A stretch of DNA of 64,000 nucleotides from Lachnospirales bacterium (lineage in GTDB: Bacteria > Bacillota > Clostridia > Lachnospirales > CAMZNU01), in NCBI GenBank assembly GCA_047973385.1, contig JBKEBX010000012.1, positions 65,858 to 129,857 on the forward strand, written 5' to 3'. The position numbers were made by a program, and so were the translations under genes. The number at the start of each line of letters is the position of its first letter. Within the stretch, counting starts at the first letter, position 1. This document shows positions 36,846 to 47,622 of the stretch, piece after piece. The notes beneath the pieces were generated by a model, which made no database searches, was not told where the DNA came from, and was given only the letters and a program-made list of their open reading frames with translations.

Positions 36846-38069
36846 ATGTACACTTCATATGTTATACATACTGATAAAGGTTTGATTTCCTATTACACAC
36901 AAAATAATATATTATACAAAAGAGTTTATTTTAAAGGGAAATGGTCAAACTCATCTGTTATTCAAACAGGTGTAAGACAGTTTTTTTCACTAAATATAAT
37001 TGAGTCAGAAAAGATATTAATATTCACTCATAGTATAAAAAATATTGTACATTTTCTATATGAAGATGAAGATAGAGAATTTAAAAACAAGCCAATTTTA
37101 GAAGCTAATAATTTACAAAAAAATCCATACTTCTTTTGTATGATAGATGGAAATTTGTTTACAATTATTTATGCTTATCAAATTGAAAAATATAAATTTA
37201 ATATTGAAAAAATGGTACTAGAAGATGGAGTTTGGTCGGATAGTGTTTTTATAGATACGGTATACTCAACAAATGGTGTACCTTTTTACACTGTTAAAAT
37301 ATCACTTAACCATTATATGTTATTTTATGATACTGTTCAAAATAGCTTGAATTTATGTTATAGAGAAATTACTCCAAACAAGATTTCAGAAAAAACAGTT
37401 TACCATACAACCACATACGGTTTAATTGATAAAACTTTTTTAGTAACAAAAAATAGTATTTATACTGCATTTTTACAAAAATCTCTATTTTCATATCAAC
37501 TTATGTTTAGACAAAAAAGCAGAAATGGTACAAATAATGTAAAAGTTGTAGTTGAGGGGACTAAACTGAAAAATATTTTCATGTTTTTTTATGATGAGTT
37601 TATATACATTTTTTATAGCTACGGCGATGAATTCTTTTATGTTTATGGTAAAGAAGATAATGATGTTTTTTTCTCGAAACCACATAAATTATTAAGTAAA
37701 TTCAATATAAAAAATAATATAAAAAAGATTTGTATTTTAAATAAAGATCGAGAATATAACCAGATGCTTGCAGATGAAAAAAGTCCATATCAACCTATTG
37801 TCATAAACAGTATTAACCCATTTTTTCAAGATGTTCCTTATAGAAAAGTGGAAAATACTGAAAAGGACATAGATGAAAAAGTAGTTGAAGAGGTGAAGAA
37901 AGAAAATGATGAGAAAGTTAAAAAAGAAAAACTGAAATCAGATTCTTTGTTTGAACAAATAAACCAACTTAAAACTGAAATTTATTTAAAAAATAATGAA
38001 ATAGCTGAAATGAGAACTTATATTTCTGAAATGGAGAGTAAAGAAGATATGGCAACACCTAAAGATTAA
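36846..38069 (+). CDS. hypothetical protein with aromatic-rich beta-repeat-like N-terminal ~330 aa and a K/E-rich coiled-coil tail
   Basis: 407-aa ORF. Recurrent YxxxxxL(Y/F) strand-like segments. The C-terminal EKVVEEVKKENDEKVKKEKLK...QLKTEIYLKNNEIAEMR looks like a coiled coil. Confidence 0.55.
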   Translation: MYTSYVIHTDKGLISYYTQNNILYKRVYFKGKWSNSSVIQTGVRQFFSLNIIESEKILIFTHSIKNIVHFLYEDEDREFKNKPILEANNLQKNPYFFCMIDGNLFTIIYAYQIEKYKFNIEKMVLEDGVWSDSVFIDTVYSTNGVPFYTVKISLNHYMLFYDTVQNSLNLCYREITPNKISEKTVYHTTTYGLIDKTFLVTKNSIYTAFLQKSLFSYQLMFRQKSRNGTNNVKVVVEGTKLKNIFMFFYDEFIYIFYSYGDEFFYVYGKEDNDVFFSKPHKLLSKFNIKNNIKKICILNKDREYNQMLADEKSPYQPIVINSINPFFQDVPYRKVENTEKDIDEKVVEEVKKENDEKVKKEKLKSDSLFEQINQLKTEIYLKNNEIAEMRTYISEMESKEDMATPKD

Positions 38070-38135: not shown

Positions 38136-38142
38136 ATAAAAT

Positions 38143-38167
38143 AAAAAAATGCCATAGGCATTTTTTT
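38143..38167. terminator. bidirectional terminator
   Basis: aaaaaaatgcc-ata-ggcattttttt. Confidence 0.85.
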
Positions 38168-38170
38168 ATT

Positions 38171-39052
38171 TTAAGTATATTTTTCTAACACATTTATAAA
38201 CTTATCTATACTTGTATTATCTGTTTGTCTATATGCACATATAACTTTGAAAAAATCTTTATATTCATCTATTTTTACAAATTTTACATTTTCCGTTGCA
38301 AAATGTTGCATATGACTTGCGAGTAAGGTTATACCTACTTTACATTCAACCATCATAAGCATATTAAACAAAGTATTTGCTTTATATTCAACTTTTGGGC
38401 TGAAACCATTTTCTAAACAAATATTATTGATTAGATTATAGTCGTGATAAGATTTTTTAGGGTTGATTTGCACAAAGGGTTCATCTTCAATTTCTAAAAT
38501 AGAAATAGAATCAAACTTTGCAAGTGGATGACTTTTATGTACAGCAACGCACATATCATCATAAAAAAAGTGTTTTCTTAAAAGATTAGGTATGTTAGGC
38601 AACTCACTATCAGGTAATATAGCTATATCAACTTCTTTTTCATGAAGTGCATTTATAAGGGGCGAATATGAAAAATCAAACAAATCAACTTTTATATTTG
38701 GATATAAATCGTTAAACTTATTAATTATTTCAGGCAAAGTTCTTATAACGGCTGTACCTAAAAAACCGATTTTTACATTACCAGTTATACCAGTACCCAT
38801 ATCTTGAGTCATTTTTATGGCTTCTTTGTATTTTTGAATAATTTTTATTGCTTCATTATAAAAAACTTTACCTGCATTTGTAAGCTGAACATCTCGTTTA
38901 GTTCTAATAAACAATTTACAACCTAAATTTTGTTCAATATTCACAATTGCCTTACTTAAGTTAGGTTGTGTAATATGTAATTTCTCTGAGGCTTTTGTGA
39001 AACTTAGTGTTTCTGCTAATGTTACAAAGTACTCTAATTGTGCAATATTCAA
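38171..39052 (-). CDS. LysR-family transcriptional regulator
   Basis: NIAQLEYFVTLAETLSFTKASEKLHITQPNLSKAI HTH. TTG start 6 nt after GGGAGG. Divergent from the catabolic cluster. Confidence 0.9.
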   Translation of the reverse strand: MNIAQLEYFVTLAETLSFTKASEKLHITQPNLSKAIVNIEQNLGCKLFIRTKRDVQLTNAGKVFYNEAIKIIQKYKEAIKMTQDMGTGITGNVKIGFLGTAVIRTLPEIINKFNDLYPNIKVDLFDFSYSPLINALHEKEVDIAILPDSELPNIPNLLRKHFFYDDMCVAVHKSHPLAKFDSISILEIEDEPFVQINPKKSYHDYNLINNICLENGFSPKVEYKANTLFNMLMMVECKVGITLLASHMQHFATENVKFVKIDEYKDFFKVICAYRQTDNTSIDKFINVLEKYT

Positions 39053-39066
39053 CTTATACCTCCCGT

Positions 39067-39081
39067 TTATTACTGTAATAA
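39067..39081. promoter_or_regulatory. 15-bp perfect palindrome with a T-N11-A core (candidate LysR box)
   Basis: TTATTAC-T-GTAATAA, in the divergent intergenic region. Confidence 0.4.
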
Positions 39082-39237
39082 GTATTATGAATTTCACTTT
39101 AAAATTAATAAATGTTACAATAAATATATAATAATTATACAACAATGTTAATTAAGTGTCACTACTTTTTGAGAAAAAAGTTTTTTTTATACTTGTTGTT
39201 TGATATTTTTTTGACAAAAAATAGTAGGAGGTTTGTT

Positions 39238-39585
39238 ATGATTAAACGTACTTTAGAGGAGTTACAAGCGTATGATGCACCGGGGCATTATAAAATGACG
39301 GCTATGCGTTTGCATGGTAAAGAAGAAACAGGAGCAGAAAAGTTTTGGGTTGGTTTATCAACATTTTTACCAGGTGGTGGAGCAGAGTATGCATATGAAG
39401 ATAACCCACTTGAAAAATTTTACTATGTTTTAGAAGGTGAAATAACTGTAAAAGAAAAAGATGGTACAGTGCATGTTGTTGGCAAAGGAGAAAGTATTTC
39501 ATTTAAGCCAAATGAAGGGCGTTATTTAGATAACTTAACAAACGCACCTGTTCAAATGCTTGTTGTTATCAACTATCCAGAGTAG
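39238..39585 (+). CDS. cupin-domain protein (115 aa)
   Basis: Start at MIKRTL behind GTAGGAGG. Small beta-barrel pattern G..YYVLEGEITV....G. Confidence 0.65.
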   Translation: MIKRTLEELQAYDAPGHYKMTAMRLHGKEETGAEKFWVGLSTFLPGGGAEYAYEDNPLEKFYYVLEGEITVKEKDGTVHVVGKGESISFKPNEGRYLDNLTNAPVQMLVVINYPE

Positions 39586-39599
39586 GAGGATTTTTATAA

Positions 39600-40391
39600 A
39601 TGATTAAGTTAGAAAAAGAATTCGTGAGTAAAATGTTTAATCTTGAAAATAAAGTTGCTATCGTTACAGGTGCAACGGGTGCGTTAGGCTCGGCAGTTGC
39701 TAAGGCTTACGGATATCAAGGTGCAAAAGTTGTTCTAACAGCAAGAAATGAAGAAAAACTTAAGGCTTTAGCCGAGGAGTTTAAAGGTGAAAGTATCGAG
39801 TGTAGCTATGTTGTAGCTGATCCAGGTGTTGAGGCTGATGCAAAAAAACTTATAGATGAAGCTATAAAACTTTATGGCGAACTTAATATATTAACTTTAT
39901 GTCATGGGTACAATGCTCCAAAGGGAATTTTAGATCAAAGCGTTGAAGAATGGCAGAAGATTATGGATGCAGACCTTAAAAGCGTGTACCTTGTAACGAA
40001 ATTTGGTGCTGAGAAAATGGTAGAGCAAAGTAAGGGTGGTAAAATCCTTATAACTTCATCTGCTAGAAGTAAAATGGGTATGAAAGGTTATACTGGTTAT
40101 TGTGCTTCAAAAGGTGGTTGTGATATCATGGCTCAATCAATGGCTTGTGACCTTGCACCACATGGAATAAATGTTAACACGATTAACCCTACTGTTTTCC
40201 GTTCAGACTTAACAGAGTGGATGTTTGATGAAACATCAGCAGTTTACCAAAATTTCTTAAAGAGATTACCGATTGGTAGACTTGGTGAAGTACAAGATTT
40301 TGTTGGTCTTGCAACTTTCTTAGTTTCTGATGCTTCAAATTTCTTAACAGGTGCAAACTATGACGCAACTGGTGGGTACTGGGGGAACTAA
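39600..40391 (+). CDS. SDR-family oxidoreductase (gluconate-5-dehydrogenase/KduD-like)
   Basis: TGATGALG cofactor motif and YCASK catalytic motif. Confidence 0.85.
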
Positions 40392-40392
40392 T

Positions 40393-41325
40393 ATGACAAT
40401 AAAAAAGGTATCAGTAATTGGTGCAGGACTTATGGGGAATGCAATTGCGATTGTTTTTGCTAAAAATCCTGACATACAAGTTTGTTTGTTTGATGTTGTT
40501 GATAAACCTGACTTTAAAGCACCAATAAAAGAAGTTTTAGATGTTATGATAGATGGAAACATTTTGACTAATGATGAAAGCCATAAAATCTTAGGAAAAA
40601 TATCATATGAAAAAGATTTGGAAAAAGCTGTTGAAAATGCAGATTTTGTTATAGAATGTGTACCTGAAATTTTAGATTTAAAGCAAAATGTTTTTGCTGA
40701 AATTGAAGGGTATGTTAAGGAAAGTACAATTCTTGCTACTAATACATCTGTTATGAGTGTTACAGAAATTTTTTCAAAATGTAAAATTAGAAATAGAGTT
40801 ATAGGTGCACATTTTTGGAATCCAGGGCATTTGATACCTTTAGTTGAAGTTGTGAAAACAGTTGATACAGATGATAAAGTTATTGATGTTGCTATGGAAC
40901 TTCTTAAAAAATCAGGTAAAAAACCGATTTTATGCAAGAAAGATGTTCCAGGTTTTATAGCAAATCGCTTACAACATGCATTATGGAGAGAAGCTTTCTA
41001 TATGGTTGATGAAGGTATAGCTGATCCTAAAACAATTGATGAAGCTTGTAACTATGGTCCAGGACTTAGATGGCCTGTTATTGGGCCTATGGAAAATTCT
41101 GATTTAGTAGGTCTTGACTTATCTTTAAACATACATAACTATATTTTGAAACATTTAGCTGATAACCATGAACCATCAAAGGTTTTAAAGGAAATGTATG
41201 AGAGTGGAAAAAATGGTTTCAAAACAGGTTCAGGTTGGCAGGATTATACTGAAGAAGAAATGAAAAGTATTAAAGATAATTTACAAAAATATTTGATAAA
41301 ATACAATGCAGAGAATAAATTTTAA
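40393..41325 (+). CDS. 3-hydroxyacyl-CoA dehydrogenase-family NAD-dependent dehydrogenase
   Basis: VSVIGAGLMGNAIA Rossmann motif and HFWNP motif. Start 1 nt after the SDR stop. Confidence 0.85.
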   Translation: MTIKKVSVIGAGLMGNAIAIVFAKNPDIQVCLFDVVDKPDFKAPIKEVLDVMIDGNILTNDESHKILGKISYEKDLEKAVENADFVIECVPEILDLKQNVFAEIEGYVKESTILATNTSVMSVTEIFSKCKIRNRVIGAHFWNPGHLIPLVEVVKTVDTDDKVIDVAMELLKKSGKKPILCKKDVPGFIANRLQHALWREAFYMVDEGIADPKTIDEACNYGPGLRWPVIGPMENSDLVGLDLSLNIHNYILKHLADNHEPSKVLKEMYESGKNGFKTGSGWQDYTEEEMKSIKDNLQKYLIKYNAENKF

Positions 41326-41342
41326 TGGAGGATTTTTAGATT

Positions 41343-42281
41343 ATGGGAAAGAAAGTATTTGTTGATTTAACTCACCCTTTTAGTGCGGATACACCACGTT
41401 GGCCTTATTTTGTTAAGCCAGTTATTGATAATATGCATTCACTTGCAAAAGGTGGAGTTTTAACTCAACGTATAGATTGTGTTCAACACACAGGTACACA
41501 CTGTGATGCACCTCGTCATGTTATGGAAAAAGAGTTTAACGGTAAACGTGCTAGATATACTCATGAAATGCCAGTTGATGCTTATACAGGTGAAGCTGTT
41601 TGTTTAGAAATAAAAGTTGACAAATGGGGGCTTATTTTACCTGAGCATTTAGAAGATGCTTGTAAACGTGCAAATATCAAGCCTGAAGAACTTGAGGGTA
41701 TGGTTGTTTGTCTAAACACAGGTATGCATAGATTGTTTGATGACTCTAAAGACTATTATCATTATTCTTGTGGTACAGGTGTTGAAGCAGGTAAATGGTT
41801 TGTAAAACATAAAGTTAAATGTGTTGCTATGGATATGCAGGCTCTTGACCACCCACTCCATACAGCTATGGGTAACAATGGTATGACAAGACTTAACTTA
41901 CTTGGTGCTTCTGGCAGACCTATTACTGAAGAATATACAGAGCAATTTGGTAAAGAGGCTTATGCCGAGTTTGATAAAGAGTTATACATTGAAGTTCATG
42001 GTAAAGAAAAATATGATGAAGTTTATGGAGAACTTGAAAGTGTATCAGGTTGGGGTACATGGGAACCTTGCCATAAGTTAATGCTTGGAAACGGTATTGT
42101 TGGTGTTGAAAACTTAGGCGGTAACCTTGACCAAGTAGCAGGTAAGCGTTTCAGATTTTTCTGTTTCCCAATTCGTTGGTATATGGGTGATGGTGCAATG
42201 GTTCGCTGTGTTGCAGAAATTGATGAAGATGATGTAGTAGACGTTCCAGAGCGTACATATACTTATGCTGGTTGCATCTAA
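41343..42281 (+). CDS. cyclase-family (kynurenine-formamidase-fold) metal hydrolase
   Basis: QHTGTHCDAPRH corresponds to the HxGTHxDxPxH motif of the putative-cyclase family; 312 aa. Confidence 0.75.
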   Translation: MGKKVFVDLTHPFSADTPRWPYFVKPVIDNMHSLAKGGVLTQRIDCVQHTGTHCDAPRHVMEKEFNGKRARYTHEMPVDAYTGEAVCLEIKVDKWGLILPEHLEDACKRANIKPEELEGMVVCLNTGMHRLFDDSKDYYHYSCGTGVEAGKWFVKHKVKCVAMDMQALDHPLHTAMGNNGMTRLNLLGASGRPITEEYTEQFGKEAYAEFDKELYIEVHGKEKYDEVYGELESVSGWGTWEPCHKLMLGNGIVGVENLGGNLDQVAGKRFRFFCFPIRWYMGDGAMVRCVAEIDEDDVVDVPERTYTYAGCI

Positions 42282-42352
42282 ATTTAATAAAAGAAAGTAT
42301 GGTTGGGTTATTTATATAATCCAGCCTATAATTGCAAATATAGGAGAGAAAA

Positions 42353-43198
42353 ATGAGTGATTTAAAAAATAAAAGAATTATAACTGTTGCGACAACAGGT
42401 GCATGGCCAACAAAAGAAAATACACCAAATGTACCAATTGAGCCACATGAAATAGCTGAAGAAATCTATAATTGTTGGAAAGAAGGAGCTTCTATTGCCC
42501 ATATTCATTGTAGAGATGATGAGGGTAGGGCAGCTATGGAATTTGAAAAATTCGAAGAAACTGTTAGACTTATTAGAGAAAGAAAAGATTGTGATATAAT
42601 AATAAATTTAACTACTTCTGGCGGGATTAACTTAAAAGAAGAAGATAGGTTACGTCCTTTTTATGAGTTGAAGCCTGAAATGGCAACTTTTGATTGTGGT
42701 TCTATGAACTGGCAATACAACGCAGTTTTTGAAAATCATCCACATTTTTTACAAAAGCTTGGACCAATGATGCAAGAAGTTAATGTTAAACCTGAAATAG
42801 AAGTTTTTGATCCAGGTATGATTTATGAAGCAGGGTACTATATTAAAAAAGGAATTTTAAAAACTCCTGCACATTTCCAATTTTGTATGGGCGTTCCAGG
42901 TGGTATAGCGGCAACAACTAAAAACCTTGTATTTATGAAAGGTGTTTTAGACGAGGTTGCTCCTGGTTCTACATGGTCGGCTTTTGGCGTTGGTAAAGGT
43001 GCTATGGAAATCATGTACGCTGCTATCGCTATGGGTGGTAACATACGTGTTGGAATGGAAGATAATGTACTTTATAAAAAAGGTGTTATTGCAGACTCTA
43101 ACATGCAGTTTGTAGCTAGAGCAAAAAGATGTATAGAAGAAGCTACTTTAGAAGTTGCAACTCCTGATGAAGCAAGACAAATTTTAGGGCTTAAATAG
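42353..43198 (+). CDS. BKACE-family beta-keto acid cleavage enzyme (3-keto-5-aminohexanoate cleavage enzyme-like, DUF849)
   Basis: IITVATTGAWPTKENTPNVPIEPHEIAEE...ASIAHIHCRD... is the typical BKACE TIM-barrel N-terminus; 281 aa. Confidence 0.8.
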   Translation: MSDLKNKRIITVATTGAWPTKENTPNVPIEPHEIAEEIYNCWKEGASIAHIHCRDDEGRAAMEFEKFEETVRLIRERKDCDIIINLTTSGGINLKEEDRLRPFYELKPEMATFDCGSMNWQYNAVFENHPHFLQKLGPMMQEVNVKPEIEVFDPGMIYEAGYYIKKGILKTPAHFQFCMGVPGGIAATTKNLVFMKGVLDEVAPGSTWSAFGVGKGAMEIMYAAIAMGGNIRVGMEDNVLYKKGVIADSNMQFVARAKRCIEEATLEVATPDEARQILGLK

Positions 43199-43423
43199 TT
43201 AAAATAAGACCCTTGACCTTAAGGTAATTACACAACAAAATAGTATATACTGAATATTTTTTGAAATTTTAGTTTACTTTGTTAGAAAAAATTAATATGG
43301 TTTATTTAGTACACATATACCTAAAAAAACTATTTAAACTTATGTTAGATTTTGAAATAAAGATTTTTAGTTTAGTTGATTTTAGAATATATTTGGTATA
43401 TATATTTTGATATAGAGGTGAAT

Positions 43424-44077
43424 ATGAAAGTAATTGGAAAAGATATATTTAAAGAGCATTTAAAAGATGGAATGTCCATTATGGTCGGTGGTTTTATGAC
43501 AAATGGAACTCCTGAAATTTTGATTGACTTAATTGTAGAATCAGAAGTTAAGGATTTAACTTTGATTTGTAATGATGCAGGATATGAAGATAAAGGCATA
43601 GGTAAACTTATAGCTAATGGTTTAGTTAAAAAACTTATTACTTCTCATATTGGGTTGAACCCTCTAGCGGGTAAGTTGATGAATGAGGGTAAACTTGATA
43701 TTGAGCTTGTACCTCAAGGTACTCTTGCTGAGCGTATACGTTCCTTTGGTGCAGGTCTTGGAGGTGTTTTAACTCAAACAGGTCTTGGCACAGACGTGGC
43801 AAATGGCAAGGAAACATTACAAGTTGACGGTAAAGAGTTTTTACTTGAAAAGCCACTTGGGGCTGATTTGGCAATTATAAGAGGAACTTTGATTGATAAA
43901 GCCGGAAATGTATTTTATAGTGGAACAACAAGGAACTTTAATCCACTTATGGCAACGGCTTGTAGCGTTGTTTTTGCAACTTGTGAGAAACTTGTTGAAG
44001 TTGGAGAAATCCAAAAAGAAGCTGTTATCACTCCGTCAATTTTTGTTGATTATGTAGTTGAGGGGGTTGAGAAATAG
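43424..44077 (+). CDS. 3-oxoacid/acetate CoA-transferase subunit A
   Basis: GMSIMVGGF...GTPE and [13 protein letters not shown] motifs. Start behind AGAGGTG. Confidence 0.9.
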
Positions 44078-44724
44078 TGAATAGCAAAGAGAAAATCGCA
44101 AGACGTGTTGCAAAAGAACTTAAAGATAATATGGTTGTAAACCTTGGTATTGGTGTTCCGACTATGGTTGCGAATTATATACCTGAAGATGTAAACATAT
44201 ATTTACAATCTGAAAATGGAATTATTGGAATGGGAGATGTTCCAAATGAAGAAAATTTTGATAAAAATATTGTAAATGCTGGTGGTAACCCTGTTACTGT
44301 AAAAGAAAATGCTTGTTTTTTTGATAGCTCAATGTCTTTTACAATTATACGAGGTGGTCATGTTGATTTGACAGTACTTGGTGCTTTGCAAGTTGATGAA
44401 AAGGGAAATCTTGCAAGTCACATTATACCAGGGAAAATGGTTCCAGGTATGGGTGGAGCTATGGATCTTGTAACAGGATCTAAAAAAGTTATTGTAGCTA
44501 TGAATCATGTTGCAAAAGGGGATAAACATAAAATTCTAAAAGATATTTTATTACCGGCTACGGCAAAGGGTAAAGTTAACTTAATCGTAACTGAACTTGC
44601 AGTTCTGGAAGTAACAGACAAGGGCTTGCTTTTAAAAGAGATTGCCGAAGAAACAACGTTAGAGGAAGTAAAAAAGCTTACTGAATGTAATTTGATTGTA
44701 AGTGAAAATTTATTGGAATTTTAG
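44077..44724 (+). CDS. 3-oxoacid/acetate CoA-transferase subunit B
   Basis: NLGIGVPT and SENG (catalytic Glu) motifs. GTG start overlaps the subunit A stop by 1 nt. Confidence 0.9.
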
Positions 44725-44757
44725 TTTTAGTAAAAATTTTATTTTAGGAGTTAAATA

Positions 44758-46044
44758 ATGAAAGATGGAAATAAGAATTCAGTTATAAATTTTGGAAAAG
44801 CTGGTTGGATGGTTATCATATATTGCTTACTTATGTTTTGGTTTTATGTGGGAATGGTCAATGATGGTTCTAACTTCACAGTTCCAGCAATTGCAGAAAG
44901 ATTAAATGTTGACAAAGGTATTATCTTAAACTTAAATTCTTTAGCCGGGTTAGTCGGAGTGTTGTTTTTTATAGTAATAGGTCAAGTGAATAGAAAAATT
45001 GGTGCAAGATATACATCAGGGATATGCACTATAATCGCAGGTGTATCTTACTTTATGTTAGGTAATTCATCAAGTTTGTTTATGTATGCAGTTTCTATGT
45101 GTTTTGTAGTGGGTGGTATGATGTCAGCAGGTTATATCGCAGGGGGGTCGTTGGTTGCACAATGGTTTCCTAAGAAAAAAGGTATAGTTATGGGATATAC
45201 AACAATGGGTCATAACTTAGCCTCTGCATTTTATGTGCCTCTTATAGGTATGTTGATTGGCTCAATGGGTATAAGTATGGGTGTTATGCCTATATCTGTG
45301 GCAGCTATTTTACTTGGTATTTTTGGTATAGTTTTTATTAGAAATACTCCACAAGAACGTGGGATAAATCCAGATAATGTAAGTGATGAAATTTTTGAGA
45401 CAGAATATGATAACACTCATGAAGATGATGAAGATGGTGGGTGGACAACAAAAAGTTTGCTTAAAACTAAGGAACTATGGCTTGCTGCTATAACAACAGG
45501 AGCTTTCCAAATATGTTCTGTTGGGGTTATGACACAACTTGTAAGTAGAAATATTGAACTTGGTTTCACAGAAGCGAAAGCTGTCGCAACTATGACTGTA
45601 CTCGCACTTGTTGGTGTTGGTGGGTCATGGCTGATTGGAGTTATAGATGATAAGCTAGGTACAAAAAAGACAATGGTAGGCTTTGGTTTATGGTATGCAA
45701 CGGCACTTTTATGCAATGCTACCGAAATTATGCCACTTGTATATTTATCATTGTTTATGATTGCTATTGGTATTGGTGGTTCTGCTAACTTTACCACATC
45801 TTTACCAACATCAATTTTTGGTAGACACGGTTTTTCAAAAGTTAACAGTGTAATTTTCCCAATTCAGGGAGCGATAACAGCACTTTGTTTTGCTGTTAAT
45901 GGTTTTGTTATGTTGCTAACAGGTAGTTTAAGAATGGCTTATGTTGCTTTTGCAATAGTTGCTATAGTAAATGTTGTTCTTGTACTTATGATACAAGATA
46001 AAAAATATAATAAGGACTTTTTAGCAGAACAAAAAAATACATAA
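44758..46044 (+). CDS. MFS transporter (oxalate/formate-antiporter-like)
   Basis: 428 aa, 12-TM pattern with a central acidic loop. Confidence 0.75.
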   Translation: MKDGNKNSVINFGKAGWMVIIYCLLMFWFYVGMVNDGSNFTVPAIAERLNVDKGIILNLNSLAGLVGVLFFIVIGQVNRKIGARYTSGICTIIAGVSYFMLGNSSSLFMYAVSMCFVVGGMMSAGYIAGGSLVAQWFPKKKGIVMGYTTMGHNLASAFYVPLIGMLIGSMGISMGVMPISVAAILLGIFGIVFIRNTPQERGINPDNVSDEIFETEYDNTHEDDEDGGWTTKSLLKTKELWLAAITTGAFQICSVGVMTQLVSRNIELGFTEAKAVATMTVLALVGVGGSWLIGVIDDKLGTKKTMVGFGLWYATALLCNATEIMPLVYLSLFMIAIGIGGSANFTTSLPTSIFGRHGFSKVNSVIFPIQGAITALCFAVNGFVMLLTGSLRMAYVAFAIVAIVNVVLVLMIQDKKYNKDFLAEQKNT

Positions 46045-46365: not shown

Positions 46366-47052
46366 ATGAATTTTGTAGATAAAAATTTAGAAACTTGTAA
46401 TAACTTTATTTTTCTAGGTGAAGCAGGGAGCGGTAAAAGTGAAATAGCTATAAATTTCGCTATATATTTAAAGAAACATACAAAAAAAGAAGTACATTTC
46501 TTTGATATGGACATGACAAAGCCTTTGTTTCGCTCAAGAGATTTAGAAAAAGAGTTAAGCGATTTAAATATAGTAATGCACTATGAAAAACAGTTTATGG
46601 ACGCTCCAACTATAGTTGGTGGTGTAAGGAGAAATCTTAAAAATAGAGACGCCTATGTAGTTATGGATATTGGTGGTGACTATATGGGGGCTAGAGCTAT
46701 TGGTGGCTTTGCAAGTGAAATAAACAAGGACAACTGTTTAACTTATTATGTAGTAAATCCTTATAGACCTTGGTCAACGAACATCGAGGGCATAGATAAG
46801 GTTTTGTCAAGTATTTTAGGTGTTTCACATGTAAAAATAGATAAAGTGAAAATTGTTAGCAATCCTAACTTGGGAATTTCAACAACACTAGACGATATTA
46901 TAATAGGAAATGAAAAGGTTTTTGAGATGATTGGTGAGTATAAACCGATAGAGTTTCTTTGTGTAAGTAAAAATATATACTCTGATGTAATTGGTAAAGT
47001 GAGTTCGGAGGTTTTCCCAATAGATTTATTTTTAACATATCCATGGGAGTAG
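46366..47052 (+). CDS. orphan P-loop NTPase (228 aa)
   Basis: Walker A GEAGSGKSE, then FFDMD and VVMDIGGD strands. No close family recognised. Confidence 0.6.
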   Translation: MNFVDKNLETCNNFIFLGEAGSGKSEIAINFAIYLKKHTKKEVHFFDMDMTKPLFRSRDLEKELSDLNIVMHYEKQFMDAPTIVGGVRRNLKNRDAYVVMDIGGDYMGARAIGGFASEINKDNCLTYYVVNPYRPWSTNIEGIDKVLSSILGVSHVKIDKVKIVSNPNLGISTTLDDIIIGNEKVFEMIGEYKPIEFLCVSKNIYSDVIGKVSSEVFPIDLFLTYPWE

Positions 47053-47058
47053 TATGGT

Positions 47059-47622
47059 TTGAAGTCTTTAAGGTCTGAACACGGTGATGTACGCTTTGTT
47101 TTAGAAAACTTATCCTTTAGTAGTATCTTGTACTCGATTATTGAAAAAGAACTAGATGTTGGCATAACCCTTGAAACTGATGTTTTAAAAGCACCTACTA
47201 TTGATAGTTGTGTCTTAACAGAGATACCGAGAGTTCTGGTCTATTCAAAAAATTACAATTTAAAAAATAATACTATTTTAGAACCTATGGATTTCAAAGA
47301 TGAATGGTTTTTAGTACCTAGAACCAATAGGGGAAGCTATATAAATGATTTATTGAATAGTTTTTGTGAACCTTATGGATTTAAGCCAAATGTACAAGAA
47401 GTAAGAAATACTGAATCGCTTACAAACTCAGTTGTAAATGGTTTAGGTGTAGCCGTAGTCGATTACTTTACATATGAATCATTAAAAAAACATTGCCACT
47501 GTATTGTACTGGAGTCAACAGCAACAATAGCGGCAATGTGGAGAAAGGATAATACTAATATACTAATAAAATCCTTTATACAAGAATTACAACATAGTTT
47601 AGAAAATTTTGAGATAAAATAA
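47059..47622 (+). pseudogene. LysR-family substrate-binding domain only (HTH and linker missing): truncated regulator remnant
   Basis: Starts at an internal-looking TTG. The sequence VRFVLENLSFSSILYSIIEKELDVGI... corresponds to roughly residue 95 onward of an LTTR. No upstream HTH is found in any frame. Confidence 0.6.

Follow-up and report, generated by a model that had tools for sequence, protein, structure and literature searches.

A predicted phloroglucinol fermentation operon in a Lachnospirales bacterium and the conserved cupin gene at its head

Which compound would an anaerobe degrade with a gene cluster that combines a beta-keto acid cleavage enzyme (BKACE), a protein of the 3-hydroxyacyl-CoA dehydrogenase (HADH) family and a two-subunit CoA-transferase with a short-chain dehydrogenase/reductase (SDR), a cyclase-family hydrolase and a small cupin? 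We addressed this question for nine genes at positions 38171-46044 of a 64,000-nucleotide stretch of contig JBKEBX010000012.1 from a Lachnospirales bacterium (GenBank assembly GCA_047973385.1), the whole stretch being referred to below as the window. An earlier note, made from the DNA letters and open reading frames (ORFs), had left the substrate unknown and thought of a sugar-acid- or betaine-like compound. Our analysis leads elsewhere, as the four core enzymes match a pathway published in 2023, and we consider it highly probable (roughly 0.9), on sequence diagnostics, that the locus is a LysR-controlled operon for the fermentative use of phloroglucinol (1,3,5-trihydroxybenzene). Phloroglucinol is a common ring fragment set free from flavonoids and tannins. 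Clusters of this kind are already known, and the locus is a copy in a gut-type Lachnospirales bacterium; its cupin is the only gene of the cluster that published work does not explain.

These same four families (SDR, cyclase, HADH and BKACE) make up the phloroglucinol cluster found in Clostridium scatologenes and reconstituted in vitro (Zhou et al., mBio 2023, PMC10470551). The same study gave residue-level diagnostics for each of the four enzymes, and CtfAB, a major facilitator superfamily (MFS) transporter and a regulator also belong to the published cluster. Our four enzyme assignments are predictions based on these diagnostics, taken from C. scatologenes enzymes (prefixed Cs below) that were characterized in vitro, and all four core enzymes of the window match them residue for residue. 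Identities to the C. scatologenes proteins were computed over mass spectrometry peptides only.

The SDR (39600..40391, plus strand, 263 aa; Pfam adh_short) would be the first, ring-reducing enzyme, an NADPH-dependent phloroglucinol reductase (PGR). Its nearest relative in the PDB was 5G4K/5G4L (370 bits, 64% identity over 261 columns), with a gap of about 240 bits to the next-best SDR structure (128 bits). It has the catalytic YxxxK as YCASK at residue 167, and its T47-A-R-N aligned with the T-G-R-N of 5G4K that forms the motif for the 2'-phosphate of NADPH. We take 5G4K to be the phloroglucinol reductase of Clostridium sp. ATCC BAA-442, reportedly described by Conradt et al. in 2016. A 16-residue CsPGR proteomics peptide, matching 5G4K at 15 of its 16 positions and the window SDR at 13, lends indirect support to 5G4K being a PGR; over the CsPGR peptides, the window SDR was 60% identical. 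The earlier note had likened this gene to sugar-acid dehydrogenases, a comparison that did not survive: the weak matches to gluconate/glucose dehydrogenase models reflect generic SDR similarity, and all sugar-acid SDR models stayed below their NCBIfam cutoffs. At four proteobacterial loci (L019, L022, L023 and L072, from Brenneria, Klebsiella and Martelella), the SDR adjoining the cupin was 33-37% identical to the window PGR and the cyclase-family hydrolase 80-84% identical to that of the window; the ring reductase there may belong to another SDR lineage.

The cyclase-family protein (41343..42281, plus strand, 312 aa; Pfam Cyclase, E = 6e-32) is the predicted dihydrophloroglucinol cyclohydrolase (DPGC). 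It carries Trp20 and Tyr22 at the same numbering as CsDPGC, the two residues that stand in place of the substrate residues of isatin hydrolase and are diagnostic for DPGC (PMC10470551). The metal motif HTGTHCDAPRH (HxGTHxDxPxH) is at residue 49; the reference enzyme is Mn-dependent (PMC10470551). Over four CsDPGC peptides the window protein was 79% identical, and both proteins have 312 aa. That length had struck the earlier note as unusual but is typical of the family, most of the 120 DPGC homologues listed having 311-312 aa (range about 308-338) at 75-88% identity. No database entry matched the exact sequence of the window DPGC when it was looked up.

The HADH family protein (40393..41325, plus strand, 310 aa; Pfam 3HCDH_N and 3HCDH) is predicted to be an (S)-3-hydroxy-5-oxohexanoate dehydrogenase (TfD). 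Alignment with the Hbd of C. butyricum (4KUG) showed that the catalytic Ser117, His138 and Asn188 are kept as S119, H140 and N191, while the CoA-contacting Lys56 and Asn221 are replaced by Ile57 and Arg226. CsTfD has the same pattern of kept catalytic residues and lost CoA contacts (PMC10470551). The best PDB match was 4OM8, a free-acid dehydrogenase, and identity to the CsTfD peptides was 55%. The residues fit the proposal in the earlier note that this enzyme oxidizes a free 3-hydroxy acid.

The BKACE (42353..43198, plus strand, 281 aa; Pfam BKACE, E = 8e-104) would be the triacetate acetoacetate-lyase (TAL). Its sequence TGAWPT aligned with TGAETT of Kce (2Y7D), the founding BKACE of lysine fermentation, so that Glu14 of Kce corresponds to Trp18 of the window protein. 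Glu14 binds the 5-amino group of the Kce substrate, and its exchange for Trp defines TAL (PMC10470551). The motifs HIH (residue 50) and GMEDN (residue 234) aligned with VIHLH and GFEDN of Kce, indicating that the metal site is kept. The window BKACE was 57% identical to the CsTAL peptides, compared with 42% to Kce, and has the same length (281 aa) as CsTAL.

Downstream of TAL, ctfA (43424-44077) and ctfB (44077-44724), which together cover 43424..44724 on the plus strand, encode the two CoA-transferase subunits (Pfam CoA_trans, in two genes). Both passed their TIGRFAM subfamily cutoffs (TIGR02429, 214 bits against 128.5; TIGR02428, 294 bits against 243.6), and CtfA was 58% identical to the CsCtfA peptides, which identifies CtfAB by sequence as an acetoacetate:acetyl/butyryl-CoA transferase. 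The last gene of the cluster (44758..46044, plus strand, 428 aa; Pfam MFS_1) encodes an MFS transporter with weak lactate/OFA-type similarity in NCBIfam.

Put together, these genes would form a route of phloroglucinol degradation, the enzymatic steps of which have been demonstrated for the reference enzymes of C. scatologenes and are proposed here for their counterparts. The MFS transporter would presumably import phloroglucinol, which PGR would reduce with NADPH to dihydrophloroglucinol. DPGC, with Mn2+, would then open the ring by hydrolytic retro-Claisen cleavage of a C-C bond to give (S)-3-hydroxy-5-oxohexanoate, and TfD would oxidize this free acid with NAD(P)+ to triacetate (3,5-dioxohexanoate). 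TAL would transfer the acetoacetyl unit onto acetyl-CoA, yielding acetoacetate and acetoacetyl-CoA, and CtfAB would convert the acetoacetate into a second acetoacetyl-CoA. A thiolase and an acetate/butyrate branch, presumably encoded elsewhere in the genome, would complete the fermentation. Much of the chemistry in the earlier note agrees with this scheme, namely the cleavage of a beta-keto acid by the BKACE with acetyl-CoA to acetoacetate and an acyl-CoA and the activation of acetoacetate by the two-subunit transferase. Its suggestion that the substrate first needs ring, amide or lactone opening was right in placing a ring-opening, cyclase-fold enzyme upstream of the HADH; the predicted reaction is a retro-Claisen C-C hydrolysis and not the opening of an amide or lactone.

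Some observations weigh against this assignment. The identities to the C. scatologenes proteins (47-79%) refer to peptides and not to full-length sequences, and 5G4K bears a generic name in the PDB, its identity as a PGR being our assumption. The reconstitution in vitro needed four enzymes and did not include the cupin, which is hence not strictly required in vitro (PMC10470551). The cluster has no thiolase, which must be encoded elsewhere because none lies among these genes. Finally, the window BKACE scored only 227 bits on NF053538, the NCBIfam model named 3,5-dioxohexanoate:acetyl-CoA acetone transferase (cutoff 430), with only its C-terminal half aligning well. As a proxy for CsTAL we used the TAL of Clostridium sp. 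OS1-26 (L028), which contains the CsTAL peptides almost verbatim, and it behaved in nearly the same way as the window BKACE (218 bits on NF053538, 316 bits on the Kce model). Because the proxy fails equally, the score on NF053538 does not bear on orthology with CsTAL. A 307-aa BKACE near DPGC in MAGs (metagenome-assembled genomes) of sulfate reducers reached 393 bits on this model, which, judged from these sequences, represents another BKACE clade of 307-310 aa; the window BKACE lies outside it and is assigned as an orthologue of CsTAL.

In two of these genomes, MAGs of Desulfatiglandales/Desulfobacterales (L031 and L059), the 307-aa BKACE carries TGAIHT, is 34% identical to the window TAL and lies at about 18.7 kb and 17.4 kb, respectively. 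Two non-orthologous BKACE clades may thus perform triacetate cleavage, with the NCBIfam model missing the experimentally characterized one (about 220 bits).

We then examined how far the gene combination is conserved. A genome scan with the window DPGC retrieved 338 relatives, and the best 80 loci, from named genomes and with DPGC 80-89% identical, were analyzed by tblastn (E at most 1e-10, query coverage at least 60%). Among these best 80 of 338, a match was found to PGR in 72 loci, to TAL in 67, to TfD in 66, to the cupin in 66, to CtfB in 50, to CtfA in 48, to LysR in 27 and to the MFS transporter in 15. Stricter identity thresholds left 60 of the 80 loci for PGR (at least 45%), 65 for TAL (at least 50%) and 36 for TfD (at least 42%); the weaker HADH and SDR matches may be other members of those large families. 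The Trp signature was present in 61 of the 67 BKACEs neighbouring DPGC. The combination recurs in 80 genome and 80 metagenome loci, and where ctfAB stands with respect to the core differs among loci, consistent with a separable module. The earlier note had named a lack of conservation in a neighbourhood analysis as grounds for giving up its reading of the genes as one cluster, and on this point the cluster proved strongly conserved.

Shorter and duplicated versions of the cluster were also observed. In an Aminipila MAG (L017, 7713-12412), and likewise in L018 and L026, a divergent HxlR-type regulator is followed by the cupin, PGR, DPGC and MFS genes, and TfD, TAL and CtfAB are missing from the surroundings; degradation in these organisms may end at 3-hydroxy-5-oxohexanoate or continue by another lower pathway encoded elsewhere. 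Two genomes, those of Lachnospiraceae bacterium ZAX-1 (L006/L007) and the Deltaproteobacteria MAG Pcl387_bin95 (L065/L074), each have two separate DPGC clusters, which differ in gene order and HADH type and suggest paralogous phloroglucinol-type pathways or substrate specialization.

Could the same genes serve another pathway? The proposal in the earlier note, cleavage of a beta-hydroxy acid derived from a sugar-acid- or betaine-like compound by analogy with carnitine catabolism, draws on a real likeness of architecture: in the Pseudomonas carnitine module, as described there, a carnitine dehydrogenase oxidizes a free 3-hydroxy acid, a BKACE cleaves the product and a two-subunit 3-oxoacid CoA-transferase (DhcAB) takes up the acetoacetate. 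The window HADH also matched carnitine dehydrogenase models, and the SDR those of gluconate/glucose dehydrogenases, but weakly. The carnitine dehydrogenase cutoffs were missed by a wide margin (NF005716, 163 against 592 bits; NF005471, 137.5 against 414 bits), and the structure taken as a PGR outscored the sugar-acid SDR models, all of them below cutoff, threefold. Carnitine catabolism has no counterpart to the reductive dearomatization and ring hydrolysis of a phenol, whereas the diagnostics of DPGC and TAL are specific to the phloroglucinol route and the gene combination co-occurs with a DPGC 80-89% identical to that of the window across the 80 loci. A carnitine-like pathway is accordingly very improbable.

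A BKACE that is simply Kce, in a cluster that is a fragment of lysine fermentation, deserves next to no credence, although Kce was the nearest named relative in both databases: the best NCBIfam match of the window BKACE was the Kce equivalog NF052387 (311.5 bits) and its best PDB match 2Y7D (228 bits). The two proteins share the TIM-barrel family, the HxH and GxEDN metal motifs and acetyl-CoA-dependent cleavage of a beta-keto acid with release of acetoacetate. They differ in the residue that defines the Kce substrate, Glu14 being Trp in the window protein, and the score lies below the Kce cutoff of 382 bits at an identity of 42%. Their pathway partners differ as well, those in the window being PGR and DPGC; kamA, kamDE, kdd and kal were not found among the window ORFs of at least 150 aa scanned between 0 and 53.8 kb. 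The earlier note had itself set the BKACE apart from Kce on the absence of these partners, and rightly so. Defining residues and cutoffs led us to reject both the lysine-fermentation and the carnitine readings. Overall, what the earlier note observed was confirmed and its interpretation was supported in part, and we return to phloroglucinol as the probable substrate.

Within this phloroglucinol cluster, the cupin (39238..39585, plus strand), a single-domain protein of 115 aa (Cupin_2, E = 7e-13), raises a question of its own. Its gene usually ends 10-85 bp before the start of PGR at the 66 of 80 DPGC-anchored loci that have it. In metagenome loci anchored on the cupin, a sample of close family members only (64-82% identity), 69 of the 76 loci with room for it have the start of a PGR-like gene within 200 bp, and DPGC is present in 48 of the 49 that extend 2.5 kb or more downstream. 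Loci that have no TfD and TAL keep the cupin beside PGR and DPGC, and the cupin therefore belongs to the module of ring reduction and ring opening. C. scatologenes has a counterpart: CSCA_1081, a Cupin_2 protein of 113 aa encoded directly before CsPGR (CSCA_1082) and CsDPGC (CSCA_1083), was detected in the proteome of phloroglucinol-grown cells (PMC10470551, supplement), and its peptides align to the window cupin. The main text of that paper does not mention any cupin, nor did we find a paper that pairs a cupin with phloroglucinol reductase; a check for the term in later papers on the cluster and in one later preprint on PGR and DPGC gave no cupin mention.

The cupin family is small, with 469 representatives (E at most 1e-3) among 1.84 billion, nearly always as stand-alone proteins of about 115 aa; one member from a Lachnospirales MAG (P0121) matches the window cupin at 100% identity. 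A Rosetta-stone search of the 1.84 billion representatives for fusions of the cupin to PGR or DPGC found none, yielding only bicupins, N-terminal extensions and one tandem cupin with an S-layer-homology (SLH) anchor. The latter protein (P0253, 450 aa) has three SLH domains followed by two cupins of the same family as that of the window (126 bits), a cell-wall-anchored tandem that echoes the cell-wall association reported for the mycobacterial relative Rv1717 discussed below.

The structure predicted for the cupin by AlphaFold2 (pLDDT 82) was closest in fold to TM1459, a Mn cupin of Thermotoga maritima (modelled TM-score about 0.8, 28% identity), and then to RemF, a cupin-fold polyketide cyclase (modelled TM-score 0.77, 26% identity). 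The four metal-binding His of TM1459 aligned in sequence to E54, N56, K60 and R95 of the window cupin, so that the ligands of a metal cupin are not conserved and the protein is predicted to be without a metal site. K60 and R95 are instead 98% conserved among 66 cupin orthologues, and Y12, H17, W37, Y53, E59, Y62, E93, N99 and N102 are likewise invariant or nearly so. A conserved pocket of Lys, Arg, Tyr and His beside enzymes that would act on an enolizable cyclic tri- or diketone suggests, as a hypothesis, a tautomerase, isomerase or ligand-delivery role. Our preferred guess is that the protein acts without a metal on phloroglucinol or dihydrophloroglucinol, be it as a tautomerase, an isomerase or a binding helper. 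Such a role would fit the kinetics of the reconstituted pathway, in which DPGC was the slowest step, with a kcat of about 1 s-1 for the reference enzyme compared with 22-25 for PGR and 78-395 for TfD (PMC10470551). We tentatively propose, as a possibility somewhat short of even odds, that the cupin is an unrecognized fifth component working with PGR and DPGC on the ring, for example a tautomerase or isomerase that gives keto phloroglucinol to PGR or diketo dihydrophloroglucinol to DPGC, and, by extension, that Rv1717 sits in a phloroglucinol-type operon (Rv1714-Rv1718) and has been misassigned.

Rv1717 of Mycobacterium tuberculosis is the only characterized relative of the cupin, to which it is similar in size (116 versus 115 aa) and related along its whole length. 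For the cupin, NF050094 was the best-scoring and the sole specific NCBIfam model, again at full length, and on it the window cupin scored 69 bits and seven other cluster cupins 63-86 bits against a cutoff of 175, which makes them homologues but not equivalogs. Among the neighbours of Rv1717, we take Rv1714, Rv1716 and Rv1718 to be members of the SDR, cyclase and BKACE families. Rv1717 itself was reported as a cell-wall beta-galactosidase active on pNP-beta-Gal, with a Km of 0.38 mM (PMC7873859), that is, on an artificial aryl galactoside. It is part of a predicted five-gene operon, Rv1714-Rv1718 (PMC2724278), and M. tuberculosis is listed with a DPGC homologue in a phloroglucinol-type cluster (mBio supplement, PMC10470551). 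Because of this predicted operon and this listing, the beta-galactosidase label may not reflect the physiological role of Rv1717.

The activity reported on an aryl glycoside would agree with a different account of the cluster, in which the substrate is a close relative of phloroglucinol (methylated, acylated, carboxylated or a conjugate) and the cupin supplies PGR with its substrate by an additional reaction, for instance decarboxylation, deacylation or deglycosylation. That account would give a task to the conserved leading gene of the module, for which there is otherwise no explanation, and the SLH-anchored tandem cupin suggests an external substrate. We nevertheless regard it as improbable. 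PGR, DPGC, TfD and TAL share their pocket diagnostics with enzymes acting on unsubstituted phloroglucinol and its products, and C. scatologenes, which bears the cupin, grows on plain phloroglucinol (PMC10470551). The window cupin has no metal site, its N-terminus (MIKRTLEELQAYDAPGHYK...) shows, as judged by eye, no hydrophobic stretch like that of a signal peptide, and Rv1717 has diverged from the cluster cupins, as their 63-86 bits against the cutoff of 175 indicate. Unsubstituted phloroglucinol thus remains the favoured substrate, with the cupin as a candidate helper on the ring.

The recurrence of the MFS gene beside DPGC bears on uptake: orthologues of the window transporter (58-67% identity) adjoin DPGC in 11 loci, including the cupin-PGR-DPGC-MFS module of L017, and suggest that it is a candidate phloroglucinol importer. 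Regulation would involve the divergent LysR-family gene (38171..39052, minus strand, 293 aa; Pfam HTH_1 and LysR_substrate). The LysR protein scored below every NCBIfam equivalog cutoff. Divergent LysR orthologues of 40-51% identity were found at 18 of the 80 DPGC loci; other loci use other types of regulator, such as HxlR in L017. The gene starts with TTG, preceded at 6 nt by the Shine-Dalgarno sequence GGAGGT (39064-39059), and not at the start of the maximal ORF of 324 aa.

Between lysR and the cupin gene lies a divergent control region of 185 bp (39053..39237) with a dyad and promoter-like sites on both strands. The dyad, TTATTAC-T-GTAATAA at 39067-39081, is perfect, with 7-bp arms and the T-N11-A form. 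The promoter-like sites are TTAATA-16-TATAAT on the plus strand (39105-39132) and GTGACA-17-TATAAT on the minus strand (39162-39134), and the best plus-strand match implies a transcription start about 65 bp downstream of the dyad centre. LysR-controlled promoters classically have their operator at such a distance. The control region is about 75% A+T. Promoter-like matches were as frequent as expected from shuffled sequence (40 versus 40.2), and terminator-like sites, too, were found at the shuffled expectation. By its layout, the dyad is a candidate LysR recognition site, through which LysR would control the operon. A search for an operator shared by the 18 loci with a divergent lysR produced no more than a short TAAT-N4-ATTA dyad, present in 13 loci, mostly close relatives, which is unconvincing in such AT-rich DNA. 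The 225-bp gap between TAL and ctfA (43199..43423), noticed earlier as a possible boundary between transcription units, is real; it contains a weak promoter-like match at 43213-43241, possibly an internal promoter, and showed no terminator-like site and no Rfam element. Nor did Rfam models match any riboswitch or small RNA elsewhere in the cluster or between its genes.

The gene calls underlying these results are robust. All nine ORFs are real, with the order and strands described in the earlier note, and all nine have Pfam matches in the families it named (E from 7e-13 for Cupin_2 to 8e-104 for BKACE). The whole cluster spans 7.9 kb, and the eight genes other than the divergent regulator share one strand. 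The identical locus is present in a second, independent assembly of the organism (L081, Logan SRR30067236), and the gene calls there (293, 115, 263, 310, 312, 281, 217, 215 and 428 aa) agree exactly with ours; the only corrections were start codons, those of lysR (TTG at 39052), the HADH gene (40393, 310 aa) and ctfA (43424, 217 aa).

Comparison with the reference organism shows the same content in a different order. The genes of C. scatologenes run from the cupin (CSCA_1081), PGR (1082) and DPGC (1083) through CtfA (1085) and a thiolase (1087) to TAL (1088) and TfD (1091) (PMC10470551), an order mirrored in its close relative L028. Both clusters share the four core enzymes and their diagnostic residues, and each also has CtfAB, an MFS transporter, a regulator and a cupin directly 5' of PGR. 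In C. scatologenes, however, TAL and TfD come after ctfAB and the thiolase, whereas in the window TfD stands between PGR and DPGC, TAL follows DPGC and the cluster is without a thiolase. The hosts differ too, that of the window being an uncultured Lachnospirales MAG, unlike C. scatologenes.

The main value of the cluster lies in its correct annotation. Public pipelines label these proteins "cyclase family protein", "kynurenine formamidase", "3-hydroxyacyl-CoA dehydrogenase", "3-keto-5-aminohexanoate cleavage protein" and "cupin domain-containing protein", and such labels hide from routine annotation the fermentation of polyphenol rings to acetate and butyrate by gut Lachnospirales. A useful lead is the cupin, which is linked to PGR and DPGC as tightly as these are to each other and has its sole functional label from a diverged homologue in mycobacteria. 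A role for the cupin would mean either one more step in a pathway considered complete or the correction of an annotation now spreading through NCBIfam.

The cluster is flanked by housekeeping genes (htpG, fhs, tRNA ligases, ispF, cysS, the dnaK operon and pfl). Between htpG and lysR lies a 407-aa ORF (36846-38069) that has no Pfam match and lies in the stretch of lowest GC content in the window (26%); it is followed by a bidirectional terminator-like hairpin with a 17-bp stem (38137-38173). Directly 3' of the MFS gene, positions 46366-47622 contain a CbiA/ParA-like P-loop ORF of 228 aa and an ORF of 187 aa. The latter corresponds to a LysR substrate-binding domain without the helix-turn-helix and may be a truncated second regulator. 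Homologues of the 228-aa or the 187-aa ORF were also observed downstream of the phloroglucinol clusters in L047, L062 and L079.

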